Part shown: in pieces, positions 2,332-38,508 of the stretch | Layout: every line of letters starts with the position of its first letter | How positions within the stretch are numbered: the first letter of the stretch is position 1 | Source of the DNA: an uncultured Caulobacterales bacterium | GTDB taxonomy: Bacteria; Pseudomonadota; Alphaproteobacteria; Caulobacterales; Parvularculaceae | Reading direction: 5' to 3' | Length of the DNA: 64,000 nucleotides | Assembly (NCBI GenBank): GCA_964392325.1 | Contig: CAYMPJ010000002.1 | Location: 65,521-129,520, forward strand | Notes under the pieces: generated by a model | Database searches by the model: none | Told to the model about the DNA's origin: nothing | The model's input: the letters and a program-made list of their open reading frames with translations, nothing else | Program-made: the position numbers and the translations under genes

Positions 2332-3324
2332 ATGCGTTTTCTGCTTCTCTTTTCAATCCTCATTATTCTTTTAATTGCATCAAGCAGTTGTACCCATTGG
2401 CGATTAGAGAAAAAATATCCGCCGATTGGCAATACGCTTCTAATTAGCGATCAAAAACTTCATTATCTTGATATTGGGCCGCGTGACTCGCTATATCCTC
2501 CATTGGTTATTCTCCACGGGGCTAGTGCAAATTTAATGGATATGAAGCTTGCTATTGGTGATGAGCTTTCCAAAACCCACAGAGTGATCTTAATCGATCG
2601 GCCTGGACGGGGCTATTCTACGCGGCCAGCAGATGGCCATAATCTGGATGTTCAATCTTCCATGATCCATCAGGGTCTGGAATTATTGGGCATTGAAAAA
2701 CCAATAATCATTGGTCAAAGCCTCGGCGGAGCTGTGGCTTTAAATTATACGCTGAACTATCAATCCAAAATCAGTGGCACGGTTCTAATCGCAACGGTCA
2801 GCCATGAGTGGCCCGGCGGGGTAGCATGGTACAATACGGCATCCGACATCCCTATTCTTGGCTTTATCCTTAGGCGGACTTTATTTCCTATATATGGACA
2901 AGCTGTTGCGCCCAAAGGAATTGCGAGCACTTTTTGGCCGCAAGACCCACCGCAAGATTATTATGAAAAAGCAGGTATTGCCCTTTTATTTCGTCCCAAA
3001 GATTTTAAAAGTAACGCTGCTGATATTGCACATTTAAAAACCAATATCCAAGCCATGCAAGAGCGTTATGGCGAGATTACCGTCCCGGTTAAAATTTTCG
3101 TCGGCACCCATGACACAAATGTCAGTCCAACTATTCATAGCTATCGATTATCAAAACAGATAAAAGGATCGGAGTTCATCCTACTCGAAAATCATGGACA
3201 CGGGCTCCAACATACTGGCGCGCCGGAAATTATTGCAAGCATCAAAGCTTTGGCTGTGCAAGCCTCATTGCCAACTCCCGAACCAGAAATTGCGCCAGAG
3301 ATCACTTCAGAATCTGCACAATAG
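2332..3324 (+). CDS. Alpha/beta-fold hydrolase with N-terminal hydrophobic signal or anchor
   Basis: HGASAN oxyanion region, nucleophile elbow GQSLGG and C-terminal HGHG. The ATG at 2332 gives MRFLLLFSILIILLIASSSC; the ORF-track start at 2299 is a GTG extension. Confidence 0.8.
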   Translation: MRFLLLFSILIILLIASSSCTHWRLEKKYPPIGNTLLISDQKLHYLDIGPRDSLYPPLVILHGASANLMDMKLAIGDELSKTHRVILIDRPGRGYSTRPADGHNLDVQSSMIHQGLELLGIEKPIIIGQSLGGAVALNYTLNYQSKISGTVLIATVSHEWPGGVAWYNTASDIPILGFILRRTLFPIYGQAVAPKGIASTFWPQDPPQDYYEKAGIALLFRPKDFKSNAADIAHLKTNIQAMQERYGEITVPVKIFVGTHDTNVSPTIHSYRLSKQIKGSEFILLENHGHGLQHTGAPEIIASIKALAVQASLPTPEPEIAPEITSESAQ

Positions 3325-5504: not shown

Positions 5505-5855
5505 TTAGTCGGTTTTAAGGACAGGCAATGTTTCAATATCATCGGTTTCTACCGGCGCACTTGCGAGCCACTCGGTTTTTTCCTTGCGCAAAGCCTTTAA
5601 CTCTACCCGCATTTCCTTGGCGCTCCGTCGCACTGGTCGTCCAGACGACCACATGCCCACCATTCCAAGACAAAAGCCGATGGCAATCATCGCCATAAAC
5701 CACGCCCATAAGGGGAGAGCCACACTGGTTAAAAACCCGGACCCATCAGCGAATGGATTCATACTCACCGCCACTTCCTGACGGTTCGCAACCATAAATA
5801 CGACCGCAATCAAAAAGACTGGCACCAGGATAATATATTCAATGAGCTTTTTCAT
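5505..5855 (-). CDS. LapA/DUF1049-like small inner-membrane protein
   Basis: 116 aa with two hydrophobic helices and a charged tail. It sits between ihfB and trpF, the usual alphaproteobacterial position. Confidence 0.6.
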   Translation of the reverse strand: MKKLIEYIILVPVFLIAVVFMVANRQEVAVSMNPFADGSGFLTSVALPLWAWFMAMIAIGFCLGMVGMWSSGRPVRRSAKEMRVELKALRKEKTEWLASAPVETDDIETLPVLKTD

Positions 5856-5916
5856 AGGATGTGTATTGCCATATTTTGCTACCCGGAAGCAAGGTCAAGA
5901 GATGACCAACCCTATG

Positions 5917-5942
5917 AAAAGTTGGGGGGAAAAGTTGGGGGG
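5917..5942. repeat. Tandem 13-bp duplication AAAAGTTGGGGGG x2
   Basis: Two adjacent perfect copies read directly (5917-5929 and 5930-5942) in the ihfB/lapA-like spacer. Confidence 0.8.
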
Positions 5943-6070
5943 AAATTTTAAGGGCGAAATTGTAACCGGGTACTCTATGATTTTGCGTTTTTAAAAAGGG
6001 GCGGTTGGGTGAGCCCGTTTTTCCAAAAAATCTGGCTTTAGACAAAATCCGGCGCGAGAAAAAGAACAAC

Positions 6071-6349
6071 TTACTTGTTTAAGCGTTCTTTGATCTCTTT
6101 ACCGGCTTTAAAAAAGGGTGACCATTTTTCTTCAATCGAGACAGACGCGCCAGAACGAGGATTTCTGCCAATTCGGGCTGGTCGGTGTTTTACGGAAAAT
6201 GCGCCAAATCCCCGCAGTTCTACCCTGTCCCCATTGGCCAAGGCTTCGGTGATTTCATCAAAAACCACAGATACGATCCGCTCCACATCCCGGTAATAGA
6301 GATTGGGGTTTTCGTCCGCCAGCTTTTGGATCAATTCCGATTTAATCAT
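6071..6349 (-). CDS. ihfB: Integration host factor subunit beta
   Basis: The HU/IHF fold sequence [10 protein letters not shown]...[26 protein letters not shown] is present. The ATG at 6349 is preceded by GGGAGA; the longer ORF-track start is rejected. Confidence 0.9.
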
Positions 6350-6717
6350 GAGTATCTCCCTCAAATCTGATAGCTCAACCAACCGTGGCTATACCGCACT
6401 ATGCTAAACCCCTGAAGTGCAATGGGCCGCAGTGCAATATATCGGGCTGTCTTCTAAAGCTGAACCAGATGCATTCCCTAAATGCGCAAATAACAATGAT
6501 TTTGACTGCCACATTGTCGAACCAGCCAATTTTTCCACTCTTTATTCTATACTATGCCAAATTTTGCGATCGGCTTTGGGGCTTTTCAACCGCCATGCGA
6601 AAGCGTAATTTTGGCACAAACATAGAAAAATATACAAATTCATATACTTAACGGTTAAAACAGTGTCAAAAAATCAATGCGGCGTCAAGGCACTTCTCTT
6701 TACAAACATAGCCCGCT

Positions 6718-34115: not shown

Positions 34116-35588
34116 ATGATGTCGCACGAATCAGACGATTTTACTCAGACGATCGTGCAGTCAACGGGAGAGAAAGCCATGACCAAAGAACCGGAACTTG
34201 AGGCTCTTGAAGAAGCTTATACCTATACCCGCCGCTGGCTGGGCAATATTAATGAGGCCAAGGTTGGGGCAGTGGCAAGCGTTGAAGCCCTGCGCGCGAG
34301 TTTTGATATGCCTCTCCCTGAATCGGGCGCTGATCCTGTAAAAATCATCACTGATCTGGCAAAAGCAGCAGAGTCGGGATTAAATATCAATTCTAGTGGC
34401 CGGTTTTTCGCCTGGGTGAATGGCGGGTGCCTGGCCTCGGCTCTTGCAGCAGATTTACTGGTGACCGCCTGGGACCAGAATGCCTCCATGTTTGCGGTGT
34501 CTCCAGCTGCCAGTATCATCGAGGAGGTTGCCGGAAACTGGATGAAAGATTTGCTCGATCTGCCCCGCGAGGCGTCTTTTGCATTCACCACTGGATGCCA
34601 GATGGCCCATACAACCGCGCTTGCCGCAGCAAGATTATCGGTTCTGGAACAAGCTGGCTGGGCCCTCAATGAACAAGGGATGTTCGGAGCTCCAAAAATC
34701 CACCTGATTACCAGCGGCAATCGTCATGGTTCAATTGAACGGGCAGCAAGGTTTTTAGGATTTGGACAAAACTCCCACATCACCGTAAAAACCGATGAGA
34801 TGGGTAGAATGCAAGCGGGGGATCTGCGCGCGGTTCTCTCACAAGCCAAGGGTCCAAAAATTGTTTGTTTAAATGCAGCCGATTTGAATGTTGGTGCTTT
34901 TGATGAATTTGACGAACTCATTCCTGTCGCCAAAGAATTTGGTGCATGGGTGCATGTTGATGGTGCATTTGGGTTATATGCCAGAGCAAGCCGCGCCAAG
35001 CGCCACTTACTTGCTGGTGTCGAGCTTGCTGATAGCTGGGCAACCGATGGCCATAAATGGCTAAATGTACCCTATGATTGCGGTATCGCCATCATTCGCG
35101 ATAGCAAAGCCCACCGGGCCGCTATGACTTTATCGGCGGAATATATCGCAACAGAAAATATTGCCCGCGACCAGATTGACTGGAACATGGAATGGTCACG
35201 CCGTGCCCGCGCTATTCCGGTTTATGCAAGCCTAAAAGAACTGGGGCGCAGCGGCGTAGAAGATATGATAGATAGATGCTGCACTTATTGCGAAGCCATT
35301 GTAAATGGCATTGGCGCTCTGGCGGGGGTACGTGTCCTCGCCGCCCCGACCCTTAATCAGGGACTAATCCGTTTTGAACGGCCCGGGGCGAGTGATGAAG
35401 AAAATAATCAGTACACATTGAATATGATTGAACAGATCAATAAAACTGGCGAGGCTTTTTTCTCCTCCACCTTATGGCGCGGCACGCGAGCAATGCGCGT
35501 TAGCGTTGTCAATTGGCGCACAAATGAGGAGGATGTCAGCCGGACAATTGCAGTAGTTCAAAAAGTCCTGCAGCAGTCTCACGTTTAA
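34116..35588 (+). CDS. PLP-dependent group II decarboxylase family protein
   Basis: PLP lysine region SWATDGHKWLNVPYDCG. The more likely start is the ATG at 34179 (MTKEPEL), which is preceded by GGGAGAG. Confidence 0.85.
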   Translation: MMSHESDDFTQTIVQSTGEKAMTKEPELEALEEAYTYTRRWLGNINEAKVGAVASVEALRASFDMPLPESGADPVKIITDLAKAAESGLNINSSGRFFAWVNGGCLASALAADLLVTAWDQNASMFAVSPAASIIEEVAGNWMKDLLDLPREASFAFTTGCQMAHTTALAAARLSVLEQAGWALNEQGMFGAPKIHLITSGNRHGSIERAARFLGFGQNSHITVKTDEMGRMQAGDLRAVLSQAKGPKIVCLNAADLNVGAFDEFDELIPVAKEFGAWVHVDGAFGLYARASRAKRHLLAGVELADSWATDGHKWLNVPYDCGIAIIRDSKAHRAAMTLSAEYIATENIARDQIDWNMEWSRRARAIPVYASLKELGRSGVEDMIDRCCTYCEAIVNGIGALAGVRVLAAPTLNQGLIRFERPGASDEENNQYTLNMIEQINKTGEAFFSSTLWRGTRAMRVSVVNWRTNEEDVSRTIAVVQKVLQQSHV

Positions 35589-35622
35589 AATTCCAATAGC
35601 AGAGGTAAAATGCGCCTTGTGA

Positions 35623-35645
35623 GCCTAATCCAGTTTTGATTAGGC
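35623..35645. terminator. Hairpin between convergent genes
   Basis: GCCTAATC-CAGTTTT-GATTAGGC forms an 8-bp stem between the decarboxylase stop (35588) and the membrane-protein stop (35657). The flanking T-runs are weak. Confidence 0.45.
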
Positions 35646-35656
35646 CATCATCCGTT

Positions 35657-36856
35657 TTACGGCGCTATGGTTTTATCCAACCATGGGATCAATTGGTTTG
35701 CAACGAAAAACCCTGCAACAGTATCGGCGAAAAGTGAGAACATCCATGTCAGTACTGGAAAAATGACCAGCGCGATCAATCTTATTGTTACGGATGCATT
35801 GATCGGCCACTCACGAACGGAATTAATATAAGTTTTATAATTGATCAAATCCATCTGATTCATATCGCTAGTATTCTGTTTCAAATGGGAGTGTGAAAGG
35901 GAAGAATAATCGCCATTGAGCGCTTGATTGATAACTTCGATTTCCCGGCTCTTGGTTTGACGTAATTTTTTTACGATCCCGGAAACGGGCAAATAGAATG
36001 CGATAATGGAAAACGGCGAAACCAAAATGAGAATTATCAAAGACGGACCTAATAGGTTCAAACCATCAACAATGAGGGCAATGGGGATCACCAATAATGT
36101 ACTGACCATCGCAAACAAAGTCTTTAACCCGACATGAGAATAAACGATTAGGTTATCAGTATTGAGAAGGTTAATCTTGGTGTTGCGCTTACCAACACGG
36201 CGAAAAATAAATCCGCCATTAATGATGATTGCCGTTGCCTGCAAAATAATCACCCATGTGAAGAGAGCCATAAAAAAGCCGAGCAAGAATCCAGTGGGAA
36301 CCTGCTCACCAGCTAAGAAGGCACGCACCTTGGGATTTGTAGAATTTGCAACGAGTAAAAAAACGATTGAAGACAAAGTCATCAATGTGAACTTTACTCT
36401 AGAAACATGGGTAATACGTTTTCTCAATTCAGCGTAGGCATTTTCCGAGAGATCAAGATCAGGGCGCAATCGATCCAAATTCTTCTCATATTGCTTGACG
36501 AGATACAGGCATAATGCGCTCGTATAGCTAATCTGTAGGGCATTTGCTGAGGGTAGATCCAAGATTATTGTTGGTGGCAGGAATATTGCCATGAATAGGA
36601 TAAAAATCAAATATGGATTGAGCCATGAGATATTATTCAATCTCAACAAAAGAGGGTTGCATAATGCTGGCGCAGCAATGGATTTAGGTTTTCGTATAGA
36701 AAGTTTCTTCGCAGGTGAGCTTGTTTTTTGCCCGACTTGACTTTCAATGCGCCCCTCTATTCGCTTTTTCTTTTTTGTCTCTGCACTTTGCCCCGCGGCG
36801 CTATCGAGCAGCTTAGCTGACAAGGAGGAAAGAGGTTTTGTTGTCAAATTTACCAT
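35657..36856 (-). CDS. Hypothetical polytopic membrane protein (399 aa), no family recognised
   Basis: A basic, hydrophilic N-terminus of about 50 aa is followed by about 7 hydrophobic helices with two soluble loops. The ATG at 36856 is preceded by GGGGG-N6. Confidence 0.6.
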   Translation of the reverse strand: MVNLTTKPLSSLSAKLLDSAAGQSAETKKKKRIEGRIESQVGQKTSSPAKKLSIRKPKSIAAPALCNPLLLRLNNISWLNPYLIFILFMAIFLPPTIILDLPSANALQISYTSALCLYLVKQYEKNLDRLRPDLDLSENAYAELRKRITHVSRVKFTLMTLSSIVFLLVANSTNPKVRAFLAGEQVPTGFLLGFFMALFTWVIILQATAIIINGGFIFRRVGKRNTKINLLNTDNLIVYSHVGLKTLFAMVSTLLVIPIALIVDGLNLLGPSLIILILVSPFSIIAFYLPVSGIVKKLRQTKSREIEVINQALNGDYSSLSHSHLKQNTSDMNQMDLINYKTYINSVREWPINASVTIRLIALVIFPVLTWMFSLFADTVAGFFVANQLIPWLDKTIAP

Positions 36857-36899
36857 TTTAAACCCCCTTTCTCCATTATCGGTTTGTATTGAGATCGTT

Positions 36900-37739
36900 T
36901 TATCGACCGAATTTAAACCATTTCTTGGCTGCATTTTTTGCGTGGCGCGTATCCTTCAAACATCCAACAAAGGTCAAGTTTGGACTATATGCCAAATCTC
37001 GCGGCGTGCATGATCCCAAAGGAAGAAACGCTGATCCGATTGTCCGGCGCATTCCTGAATTATCGTGTAAATCGTTGATTGTATCGATAAGGTTGCTTTT
37101 CAATGCATCATAAACTTCTGGAGTCGATGCTGTGAAAGGGTTTTTGCGCGCACCATTGATGATGGCATCAATCCCATACTTATTGGCGGGGGTCGCCTGC
37201 GCCTGATAATAACTTGAAGAAACGACTTGCACGCAAGTCATGGGCGTTTTGTCAGAATTCTCATCCAGCCATTTTACGATTTCATGTTGTATCTGCATTA
37301 GCGCAAGACGCAGAAATTCACGTTCAGTTGAATCTGTGGGGAGTTCACTTGCCATGAGCGCAACCGCAACCAGGAGCAAATCGCTATAAGCATACGCGCC
37401 CCCAACGAAACTTTTTGCTTGCGTTAAAATTGGCGCCACCGGCCAGTCTTGATCTCCCAGATGATTGCCATCGTCAGATACATACCGATACACATCAATG
37501 AGGTTTTGCGCGTTAACATCAACATCAATGGTTTCGTATTTGATGCCGTGTGTTGTGGCTTCTACAACCATGTGCGTATTATTCTCTATACCGATATATT
37601 GTGTAGCGTGACTATAGTCACCCTCATCCAGCATCATGATGATTTTATCAATGTCACTATCACCGCCTGAAAGCAGGACATCACCTGGTTTTAAATCTGC
37701 GAGCGATAATTTTTTTGGATTTGGTGGACGGCGCGACAT
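36900..37739 (-). CDS. Permuted papain-fold (NlpC/P60-like, YiiX/C92-like) hydrolase
   Basis: The motif order is LKPGDVLL, then SHATQYIG, then VVEAT..GI, then later MTCVQVVSSSYY and TPRDLAYSPNL (His before Cys). The ATG at 37739 is preceded by GGGAGAGAG. Confidence 0.55.
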   Translation of the reverse strand: MSRRPPNPKKLSLADLKPGDVLLSGGDSDIDKIIMMLDEGDYSHATQYIGIENNTHMVVEATTHGIKYETIDVDVNAQNLIDVYRYVSDDGNHLGDQDWPVAPILTQAKSFVGGAYAYSDLLLVAVALMASELPTDSTEREFLRLALMQIQHEIVKWLDENSDKTPMTCVQVVSSSYYQAQATPANKYGIDAIINGARKNPFTASTPEVYDALKSNLIDTINDLHDNSGMRRTIGSAFLPLGSCTPRDLAYSPNLTFVGCLKDTRHAKNAAKKWFKFGR

Positions 37740-37924
37740 ATCTCTCTCCCTGAGCATTTAATCATTCACTCTATAGGTCCAACACAAATTGTCAAACCAG
37801 TTATTCACGGCATTACTTCAGCAATGATGGTTGGTTAGTATTATTTTTTTTAATTTAGAAATGAAGATAAGCTATTATATTCCCGCCCTCTAAAGTAGAG
37901 CCTAAGTCAAATCTATTCTGCCTA

Positions 37925-38067
37925 ATGAGGAACCGTGTTGAGCTTTTTCAACGGAGCACGGCTGCGCTGGCAATGCGTGTTAGCATTGACGATTGGCGCA
38001 TGAATGAAGATGATATCACCCGGATAATTGCTGCAGCACAAAAGTCCTGCAGCAATCTCGAGTTTAA
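37925..38067 (+). pseudogene. Orphan, frameshifted copy of the decarboxylase 3' end
   Basis: 37971-38067 aligns by hand to 35491-35588 with about 79 of 98 matches and one 1-nt gap. It translates as AMRVSIDDWRMNEDDITRIIAAAQK, compared with AMRVSVVNWRTNEEDVSRTIAVVQK. Both copies end in GTTTAA. Confidence 0.8.
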
Positions 38068-38079
38068 AAGGCCATGAAT

Positions 38080-38508
38080 TTAAAAGGGAAACGATTTAAG
38101 ATCGGGGTCGACCCAGCGATAGCGCGCCTCCACACTGAAGAGCTTCTCCTTGGACCAATACTCCAGCAACCAGTCACTGCGGCCCATCTGCGTGGCCAGC
38201 AAAGCATTGACTGTCACATATAAAGGTTGTTCATCGGGGGCCTTATTTAGAAAATCTTTTGCACCGCGCAAGGACGCCATCGTAATCGTTTCGTGATATC
38301 CATCACTATCTGAACTTTCCACCCCCGTTGCCTCATTATATGTTCTTATAATTGATGGCATTTGGCCAAAAACATCTCTTTGACCATCAGATAATAGGCC
38401 AATAGCAGCAGCAAAATGCGCATTGTGGGTCCATTCCGGTTTTGGCAATGTATGATCAATCAGCCCGCTGACGACACGGTTGATTTCAATATCTGAACTA
38501 TATGTCAT
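38080..38508 (-). CDS. Hypothetical protein (142 aa)
   Basis: Clean ORF with an ATG at 38508 (MTYSSDIE). No family recognised. Confidence 0.55.
   Translation of the reverse strand: MTYSSDIEINRVVSGLIDHTLPKPEWTHNAHFAAAIGLLSDGQRDVFGQMPSIIRTYNEATGVESSDSDGYHETITMASLRGAKDFLNKAPDEQPLYVTVNALLATQMGRSDWLLEYWSKEKLFSVEARYRWVDPDLKSFPF

Follow-up and report, generated by a model that had tools for sequence, protein, structure and literature searches.

An islet without a recognised recombinase behind a decarboxylase gene, lying between the gene's own 3' end and a decaying duplicate of it

In the 64,000-nucleotide stretch of DNA analysed here (contig CAYMPJ010000002.1 of assembly GCA_964392325.1, from an uncultured Caulobacterales bacterium; hereafter the window), the last codons of a pyridoxal phosphate (PLP)-dependent decarboxylase gene recur further downstream, and an insert with two minus-strand genes separates the two copies. 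The question raised by this locus is how such an insert came to distinguish one lineage from another and which of the two gene ends is the native one. An earlier reading of the sequence, referred to below as the original prediction, had taken the arrangement for the scar of an element that integrated into the 3' end of the gene and supplied it with a surrogate end, about 20% diverged and originating from another lineage. The comparisons presented here favor a different polarity. The locus is probably a recombinase-less islet polymorphism located after the decarboxylase stop codon, in which the proximal, gene-attached end is native, the distal copy is an old relic and the exchange took place within the last ~30 nt of the repeat.

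The repeat pair was delimited by Smith-Waterman alignment of positions 35400-35600 with positions 37880-38090. The resulting direct repeats, 35477-35590 and 37956-38069, are identical at 92 of 116 columns (79%) with small gaps, and their local score of 107 is to be compared with 16.6±2.3 (maximum 27) for 500 shuffles. An independent repeat search returned the same pair as two ungapped blocks with identities of 78% and 86%, 2479-2480 nt apart. The duplicated gene end announced by the original prediction is therefore real and, at 114 nt, slightly wider than proposed; both copies do terminate in GTTTAA. The longest exact identity between them is a 15-nt core, AAAAGTCCTGCAGCA, found at 35561-35575 and 38040-38054 and nowhere else in the window, which contains no further copy of the repeat either. 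The proximal copy belongs to a complete gene: the open reading frame (ORF) extends over 490 aa, and the gene called in public assemblies starts at 34179 and encodes 469 aa. In the distal copy one base is missing just before the core, which shifts the frame, and no decarboxylase gene body is present upstream of it. A hidden Markov model (HMM) constructed from 119 homologues finds no other decarboxylase remnant in the six frames of 35600-38110. It matches the relic at model positions 432-459 only, from about 37964 (envelope from about 37946), and the GEAFFSGTTW block, strongly conserved just upstream in the family, is missing beside it. The description of the distal copy as a frameshifted relic devoid of a gene body is thus upheld, and a weaker codon-level similarity said to reach 37925 finds no support in the family HMM. 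The relic is identical in every insert-bearing contig that covers it (L081, L082 and L085), these contigs being 99.9% identical overall. It lies within an ATG-initiated ORF of 50 aa (37925-38077), preceded by a weak plus-strand promoter-like site at 37854-37881; nothing suggests that this ORF is expressed or functional.

The next step is to establish whether the insert is a fixed feature of the locus. Seven contigs of a sister lineage, originating from at least six samples, are free of the cassette (L095, L096 and L121 among them). In these contigs the decarboxylase stop codon and the stop codon of the convergent 142-aa gene, right-hand neighbor of the insert in the window, are separated by 45 bp (L095, L096), 12 bp (L121) or 29 bp (L125-L127) only; L122-L124 likewise show one of these three distances. 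Synteny is maintained on the left side (RPE65, thiolase, BCCT, HAD, H+-PPase, decarboxylase) as well as on the right side (142-aa gene, GNAT, NmrA-like, LysR, DUF502, DUF3089). The sister decarboxylase is 95% identical to that of the window at the amino acid level; its two variants belong to the same 90%-identity cluster as the window protein, and it was only through members of this cluster that the empty site was detected. Over 12 genes the divergence of the two lineages amounts to 6.2%; it is 0.17 at 4-fold sites (Jukes-Cantor (JC) corrected, 0.19) and 6.9% in intergenic DNA. All five contigs with the exact decarboxylase of the window (99.9-100% identical to the window) contain the insert, and so does L085, which lies beyond an assembly break in one of the same samples. 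The empty site that had been predicted, with the decarboxylase directly convergent on the gene at 38080-38508, therefore exists, and an ancient architecture fixed in all relatives is not observed since the sister lineage is empty. The locus is an insertion/deletion difference between lineages. More distant comparisons bring nothing comparable: among 80 genome loci with decarboxylase homologues, all are at most 62% identical and none is syntenic, and the next relative beyond the 90%-identity cluster is 64% identical and found in an unrelated context.

Two side observations concern the borders of this site. The spacer of the empty site is itself a tandem array of variable copy number, with a 16-17-nt unit TTAAAAGG(C/T)CCTG(T/A)A(C/T) (L095:11408-11456; L121:7408-7423; L125:2105-2135), which accounts for lengths of 12, 29 or 45 bp across samples; the window displays the 12-bp form after the relic (38065-38082). 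The unit resembles the 15-nt core located inside the gene, AAAAGGTCCTG being common to both in L125, and the exchange region may belong to a short-repeat hot spot. In addition, a break in the Logan assembly of SRR8818201 coincides exactly with the left insert junction (35584-35613), where the end of L083 and the start of L085 overlap by 30 nt. This break could reflect a branch of the assembly graph, caused by a minor empty-site or variant allele, or mere fragmentation.

The insert contains two minus-strand genes, encoding 399 and 279 aa, and spacers only, as had been stated. Its GC content of 42.2%, compared to 47.5% for the window, is the lowest among 617 sliding windows of the same size and its tetranucleotide distance corresponds to z=2.1, in keeping with the AT-richness reported from sampled lines. 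Pfam searches of the insert, of the called genes within ±10 kb and of ten further window ORFs of recombinase-like size (354-427 aa) yielded neither recombinase nor transposase domains, and no terminal inverted repeats are found at 35591/37955; on these points too the original prediction was correct. The insert accordingly does not qualify as a transposon or insertion sequence, having neither transposase nor terminal inverted repeats and being flanked by a repeat of 114 nt that is 21% diverged.

The availability of the empty site permits to determine which of the two gene ends is the native one. The empty-site allele, the proximal copy and the relic were submitted to a three-way alignment comprising 83 aligned sites upstream of the core. 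Of the 19 variable sites of this segment, 15 unite the proximal copy with the L095/L121 allele and 3 unite the relic with it; all three sequences differ at 1, and 2 further columns are indels of the relic. The situation is reversed downstream of the core and into the flank, where 8 variable sites link the empty-site allele to the relic and 1 links it to the proximal copy (Fisher p=6e-4 for the switch, which is mostly carried by flank sites). The last ~30 nt of the relic are collinear with the empty site, and so is the 12-nt spacer that follows the relic, AAGGCCATGAAT, which together with the start of the 142-aa gene lines up with the single-unit form in L121. No more than the final 13 nt of the decarboxylase ORF, stop codon included, could be derived from an element, and the two proximal differences in this coding tail (35576 and 35582) are third-position changes like the other 84 mismatches of the gene. 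Judging from these alignments, the gene-attached copy is the lineage-typical end and the relic runs directly into the native right flank. The scar put forward originally is thus retained as far as its insertion-type nature is concerned, owing to the empty site, and not supported in its claim of a diverged surrogate end attached to the gene. A run of 64 identical nucleotides was considered as a possible sign of recent gene conversion and rejected as typical, since the same gene also displays runs of 68, 59 and 56 nt.

The divergence between the two copies resides on the branch of the relic. Relic-specific changes affect 16 of the 83 sites upstream of the core, in addition to 2 indels (0.19, or 0.22 after JC correction). 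These changes are distributed over codon positions 1, 2 and 3 as 3:8:5, compared to 15:9:62 for the 86 differences between the functional orthologues (Fisher p=0.003), and GC to AT changes outnumber AT to GC changes by 9 to 4. Three substitutions, V480D, N481D and T484M, affect positions that are 88-100% conserved (105-119 of 119 homologues): residue 480 is V in 117 of them, residue 481 is N in 105 and S in 14, and residue 484 is T in all 119. Taken together, the spread over codon positions, the frameshift and the changes of invariant residues bear the signature of unconstrained decay and not of a functional orthologue acquired from another lineage, which had been the interpretation of the ~20% divergence.

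The amount of decay is also informative about its age. The relic branch is about twice as long as the per-lineage neutral divergence estimated from 4-fold sites (0.085-0.10; binomial p=0.0015-0.008), and its differences from the empty-site allele are unevenly distributed, with 16 of 83 sites affected upstream of the core and 1 of 30 in the core and tail (p=0.039). This excess, together with the near-native state of the last 30 nt, suggests that the repeat predates the split of the two lineages or arrived already diverged, and the near-native tail would place the exchange inside the last ~30 nt of the gene. On sequence grounds, the best explanation is that the distal copy began to evolve without constraint before the two sampled lineages separated.

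The mechanism proposed for the islet can be outlined as follows. DNA carrying the cargo operon and a copy of the decarboxylase 3' end would have recombined with the chromosomal gene end. The sequences themselves show the repeat, the empty site, the copy that corresponds to its allele and the decay; how the DNA recombined, with which enzyme, and whether the islet was gained or lost are deduced. Three histories would be compatible with the data. In history a, a single crossover of Campbell or att-like type would have integrated a molecule whose gene-end copy was already diverged and non-functional. In history b, an old islet and its old relic would have been imported from a relative through homologous recombination in the flanks, the right crossover falling in the tail of the relic. 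In history c, the islet would be ancestral and would have been deleted in the sister lineage by recombination between the repeats. The homologous segment is duplicated on both sides of the insert, as required for a single-crossover insertion, and the outcome would be a B-O-P' / P-O-B' arrangement with O located at or just after the 15-nt core. The exchange point would lie in the last ~30 nt of the repeat for whichever event separates the lineages, be it integration, import or sister deletion. A position at the 3' end of the repeat would be expected because it is only there that the decarboxylase escapes the frameshift and the damaged codons of the relic; the requirement for a working decarboxylase could thus explain the exchange position by selection alone.

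A number of points weigh against this reading. The reciprocal-hybrid structure depends mostly on the flank: 6 of the 8 relic-like downstream sites lie past the stop codon, where the proximal copy consists of insert sequence, and the coding tail alone gives 2 relic-like sites against 1 proximal-like. The heterogeneity along the relic only reaches p=0.039, and the rate at 4-fold sites, from which the age was deduced, may underestimate the truly neutral rate. The longest identity between the repeats, 15 nt, is short for RecA-dependent recombination. No donor, namely a decarboxylase beside the cassette, was found at any other cassette locus fetched, and neither a circular form nor a recombinase nor att-type inverted repeats were seen. 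The databases searched contain no outgroup, so that a gain in the lineage of the window and an ancestral presence followed by loss in the sister lineage are indistinguishable.

The alternative that survives best is a classical integrative-element scar in which the element supplied the whole 114-nt surrogate, now the proximal copy, displaced the native end, now the relic, and later lost its integrase. Its architecture would be that of e14 in icd, with an intact gene and a pseudo 3' end at the far side (PMC6379469), and the contiguity of the relic with the native right flank is what it predicts. The age of the relic, older than the split, can also be accommodated, as an old integration followed by a loss in the sister lineage through the last 30 nt would leave the surrogate in both lineages. 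The agreement of the proximal copy with the empty-site allele nevertheless obliges this scenario to include that additional sister deletion, whose crossover must fall at the extreme 3' end of the repeat. Since the differences between relic and proximal copy show no third-position bias, little of the 20% can represent an original difference between surrogate and native end. In addition, neither an integrase nor a remnant of one is found in the insert or within ±10 kb, and the cassette family was not encountered in viral contigs or plasmids. The e14/icd-type reading therefore survives only under ancestral presence and sister deletion, that is history c, and we regard it as unlikely.

Considerably less probable is a recent local capture, posterior to the split, at a break past the stop codon, with a 114-nt target duplication generated by stagger fill-in or template switching and subsequent decay. 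The differences between the proximal copy and the empty-site allele within the repeat are all ordinary lineage differences, as such an event implies; the relic holds the ancestral (sister) state at 4 of 6 such sites and the proximal state at none, and the decay signature agrees as well. The length of the relic branch is the main obstacle: with its 16 changes and 2 indels it is about twice the neutral expectation quoted above and nearly three times the total intergenic divergence. This excess and the uneven spread of the changes disfavor a native duplication that arose after the split and then decayed. To our knowledge, stagger-generated target duplications are also far shorter than 114 nt. Slightly less probable still, and hardly to be retained, is the proposal that the relic derives from a second, tandem decarboxylase paralogue or from an older allele displaced downstream, mostly deleted or overwritten when the cassette arrived, both relic and cassette then being lost from the sister lineage through recombination between the copies: the age of the relic, its orientation immediately upstream of the native right flank and the orphaned 3' regions known from homology-facilitated illegitimate recombination (PMC5361080) are in its favor, and against it stand the absence of any further decarboxylase remnant in 35600-38110 and of the GEAFFSGTTW block, the secondary loss also required in the sister lineage, and the single match observed at each of the 80 genome loci, whose flanks were not searched for a second copy.

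The recombinase-less islet with a native proximal end is therefore the reading adopted in the description of the features of the locus, which are collected in Table 1.

Table 1. Features of the decarboxylase locus and its insert (positions in the window; aa, amino acids)
Feature	Position	Strand	Basis
PLP-dependent (group II) decarboxylase, 469 aa, intact; target gene	34179..35588	+	Pfam PF00282, E 1.4e-48; public gene calls
Proximal direct repeat: last 37 decarboxylase codons, stop codon and 2 nt; functional copy	35477..35590	+	empty-site type
15-nt core AAAAGTCCTGCAGCA, putative exchange region	35561..35575	+	agreement with the empty-site allele switches from proximal copy to relic across the core
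Insert proper, 2,365 bp (2,479 bp with one repeat), missing in sister lineage	35591..37955	.	global alignment to L095
8-bp perfect inverted repeat GCCTAATC-N7-GATTAGGC, in the spacer where the decarboxylase and membrane-protein genes converge	35623..35645	.	sequence reading
Cargo gene 2: 399-aa polytopic helical membrane protein, uncharacterised family	35657..36856	-	public gene calls; AlphaFold2
Cargo gene 1: predicted 279-aa permuted papain-like (YaeF/YiiX, C92-like) NlpC/P60 enzyme	36900..37739	-	PF05708; AlphaFold2 and Foldseek
AT-rich spacer, 36% GC, with promoter-like site for the cargo operon	37740..37955	site on -	sequence scan
Distal direct repeat: decarboxylase 3' relic, frameshifted, decaying	37956..38069	+	alignment, family HMM
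142-aa gene, function unassigned; right-hand neighbor, convergent with the decarboxylase at the empty site	38080..38508	-	sister contigs

The insert appears to bring its own transcription signals. A promoter-like TTGACA-16-TAGAGT sequence is located on the minus strand at 37795-37768, upstream of the cargo operon and inside the spacer, from which it would follow that the insert carries its own expression signal. At the opposite end, the inverted repeat is a possible bidirectional terminator brought by the insert; it was not flagged by a consensus terminator scan because it lacks a T-run.

The first cargo gene encodes a predicted thiol enzyme. Its match to Peptidase_C92 (PF05708) is marginal, with 27.9 bits for a gathering threshold of 27 (E 2.8e-6, positions 2-75 of 166 of the profile), and its match to the NCBIfam YaeF model (E 5e-4) is far under the cutoff. 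The residues Tyr42, His44 and Cys169 are invariant among 35 homologues (42-60% identity), in the permuted order that places His before Cys. The AlphaFold2 model (predicted local distance difference test (pLDDT) of 80.6) was compared to known structures with Foldseek, the hits being YiiX (2if6, E 2.8e-7, target template-modelling (TM) score 0.67) and a permuted enzyme of Bacillus cereus (3kw0, E 8e-5). The modeled fold identifies the protein as a predicted YiiX-type permuted NlpC/P60 enzyme. A C92-like homologue devoid of the membrane partner was observed in contig L088, between paralogous histidine-kinase genes and with a Y1 transposase gene 7 kb away. The repeats of this contig (6436-7241 and 8875-9674, 73-76% identical over ~800 nt) were examined as a candidate bracketing duplication and turned out to be the 3' parts of the paralogous histidine-kinase genes themselves.

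The second cargo gene encodes a polytopic membrane protein. Its ORF amounts to 425 aa (35657-36934) and overlaps the 3' end of the upstream gene, the start retained in public calls being 36856. Residues 1-60 form a lysine-rich extension modeled with low confidence and missing in homologues, whose alignments begin at residues 47-70 or later. The AlphaFold2 model is all-helical with a pLDDT of 88. The protein has no match in Pfam, NCBIfam, PADLOC or PHROG and none better than E 0.1 in the PDB. Insect odorant and gustatory 7TM receptor channels were obtained as candidate fold matches (E 0.1-0.3, TM 0.2-0.3) and left unused as too weak. No CPBP/Rce1-like or other convincing Pfam family was recognized in the protein and ten of its relatives. 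An exhaustive search is needed in order to delineate the family, as a word-indexed search finds almost nothing; it yielded 587 representatives at 50% clustering. One member, P0208 (512 aa), carries an N-terminal TIR fusion (PF13676, E 1e-20; ThsB-like in PADLOC), which hints that the membrane module can serve TIR-type conflict systems.

The search for the same cassette elsewhere, suggested together with the original prediction, was productive. The enzyme and membrane-protein pair occurs in the same gene order at 11 further metagenome loci and in L086/L087, L091-L094, L097 and L098, in unrelated contexts that are mostly Bacteroidota-like or marine and patchy across phyla. Its neighbors include a CAP12-PCTIR TIR protein (L091), the tail of an hsdR gene (L097), fatty-acid desaturases (L101:940-1905 and 5819-6377; L106:8010-8927) and a fatty-acid hydroxylase (L091:4257-5084). 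An unrelated gene of PLP-decarboxylase fold is found 3.4 kb from the cassette in L106. No gene-end duplication surrounds the cassette at these other loci. In L097, which contains the closest relative of the cassette, a decarboxylase-like peptide (2820-3139) was initially a candidate and proved to be an out-of-frame reading of a frameshifted hsdR C-terminus (YDALARNESAIDAMGNDKIRVIA). The cassette is convergent there with the 3' end of the type I restriction gene hsdR, apparently frameshifted near TTTTTGAATC, and hsdR read out of frame mimics the decarboxylase motif STLWR..AMRV and generates a spurious TBLASTN match.

The cargo was also compared to databases of mobile elements and defence systems. 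TBLASTN found no match to either protein in PLSDB, no relative was present in IMG/VR and PHROG only returned one chance-level match (0.021); a plasmid, phage or viral origin of the cargo was set aside on these negative results. In PADLOC-DB 2.0 the two proteins and nine of their relatives remained unmatched, with the TIR half of P0208 as the only match, and the assignment of the cargo to a known defence system was dropped. From its sequence and distribution, the cargo would be a self-promoted, conserved and uncharacterised two-gene operon that moves as a unit between distant bacteria.

Some indications about the function of this operon can be drawn from characterised relatives of its enzyme. 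Permuted NlpC/P60 enzymes are directed at fatty-acyl substrates, which they bind or cleave (PMC3142127, PMC12994826). In LnsAB such an enzyme works with a polytopic membrane partner (PMC7387801), and Tox-Act1 is neutralised by a membrane-associated immunity protein (PMC12994826). From this lipid-directed chemistry and these membrane partners we infer a two-component lipid or lipoprotein system, either metabolic or conflict-related. By analogy, the most likely targets of the cargo are membrane lipids or lipoproteins; it may be an acyl-transfer or phospholipase system, or else a module of toxin/immunity or defence type. The lipid genes found beside the cassette agree with a lipid-related role; they could equally be a coincidence. 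The arguments for the function come from fold, pairing, gene context and analogy, and the contexts are mixed. Two bolder proposals are considered rather unlikely and mentioned as leads. In the first, the operon would represent a new mobile lipid-directed conflict pair (toxin/immunity or abortive infection); the TIR-fused relative of the membrane protein and the TIR protein and type I restriction tail beside the cassette are hints in this direction. In the second, the islet would be a trans-mobilised, integrase-less unit, site-specific at AAAAG(G)YCCTG, a motif of which the variable-copy spacer of the empty site is also composed.

The locus can finally be compared to known systems. It shares with e14 and phage 21 in the icd gene of Escherichia coli an insert at the 3' end of a coding gene, a gene left intact, a diverged partial duplicate on the far side, which in the case of e14 is a 163-bp pseudo-icd' (PMC6379469), and relatives that are empty. 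The flanking repeats derive from the target, and the empty site of the sister lineage is attB-like. The differences are substantial: the insert of the window is 2.4 kb in size and carries two cargo genes without integrase or phage genes, no tyrosine or serine recombinase is encoded next to an att site, and the exchange would have taken place at the 3' end of the repeat and not at its 5' end. Moreover, the copy attached to icd is that of the element, whereas the copy attached to the decarboxylase corresponds to the empty-site allele over 83 of 114 nt, the empty site agreeing with it at 15 positions and with the distal copy at 3.

Campbell-type or homology-facilitated illegitimate recombination, as described for Rhs and type VI secretion system (T6SS) effector-immunity loci (PMC5361080, PMC3240628), provides a second model. 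It is recombinase-free, it leaves homologous segments duplicated or displaced beside new DNA, displaced orphan 3' regions having been attributed to it (PMC5361080), and the cargo of the Rhs/T6SS displacements is likewise a small conflict-type or accessory module. The homology available in the window, ~114 nt at 79% with a longest identity of 15 nt, is shorter and more divergent than the anchors employed in experiments, and no donor combining decarboxylase and cassette was found for the islet.

The third term of comparison is the established concept of cis-mobilisable or degenerate genomic islets, which possess att-like direct repeats and no integrase of their own. The islet resembles them by its target-derived direct repeats, small size, deviant composition and variability between close lineages. 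It differs by the lack of a cognate integrase, of an excision product and of a second copy of the repeat or core elsewhere in the 64 kb, and with repeats that are 21% diverged a present-day site-specific mobility is doubtful. The islet is thus of a kind already known: small, recombinase-less and bounded by direct repeats taken from the 3' end of a gene. Its value lies in being a fully bracketed example of how a tiny accessory module enters or leaves a chromosome without a recombinase of its own while the neighboring gene stays intact, the occupied site being available along with several alleles of the empty site and with the decaying duplicate. It also calls for caution, as finding a diverged duplicate of a gene's 3' end is not enough to tell which copy is foreign; in the present case the intuitive reading is overturned once the empty site is taken into account.

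The cargo resembles LnsA/LnsB (PMC7387801) and Tox-Act1 (PMC12994826) by the YiiX-type permuted fold, with an invariant His before the Cys, and by the association with a polytopic or membrane partner. It differs from both in that this partner is not CPBP/Rce1-like and belongs to no Pfam family, in that no signal peptide or secretion-system domain is seen in the enzyme, and in being known from sequence and models; the two genes are adjacent and co-oriented, unlike lnsA and lnsB, which are unlinked. The cargo is perhaps the more useful lead provided by this locus, with a membrane family of 587 representatives that has neither annotation nor solved structure and includes one TIR-fused member. Its function, once known, would enlarge the small set of characterised bacterial YiiX-like enzymes.

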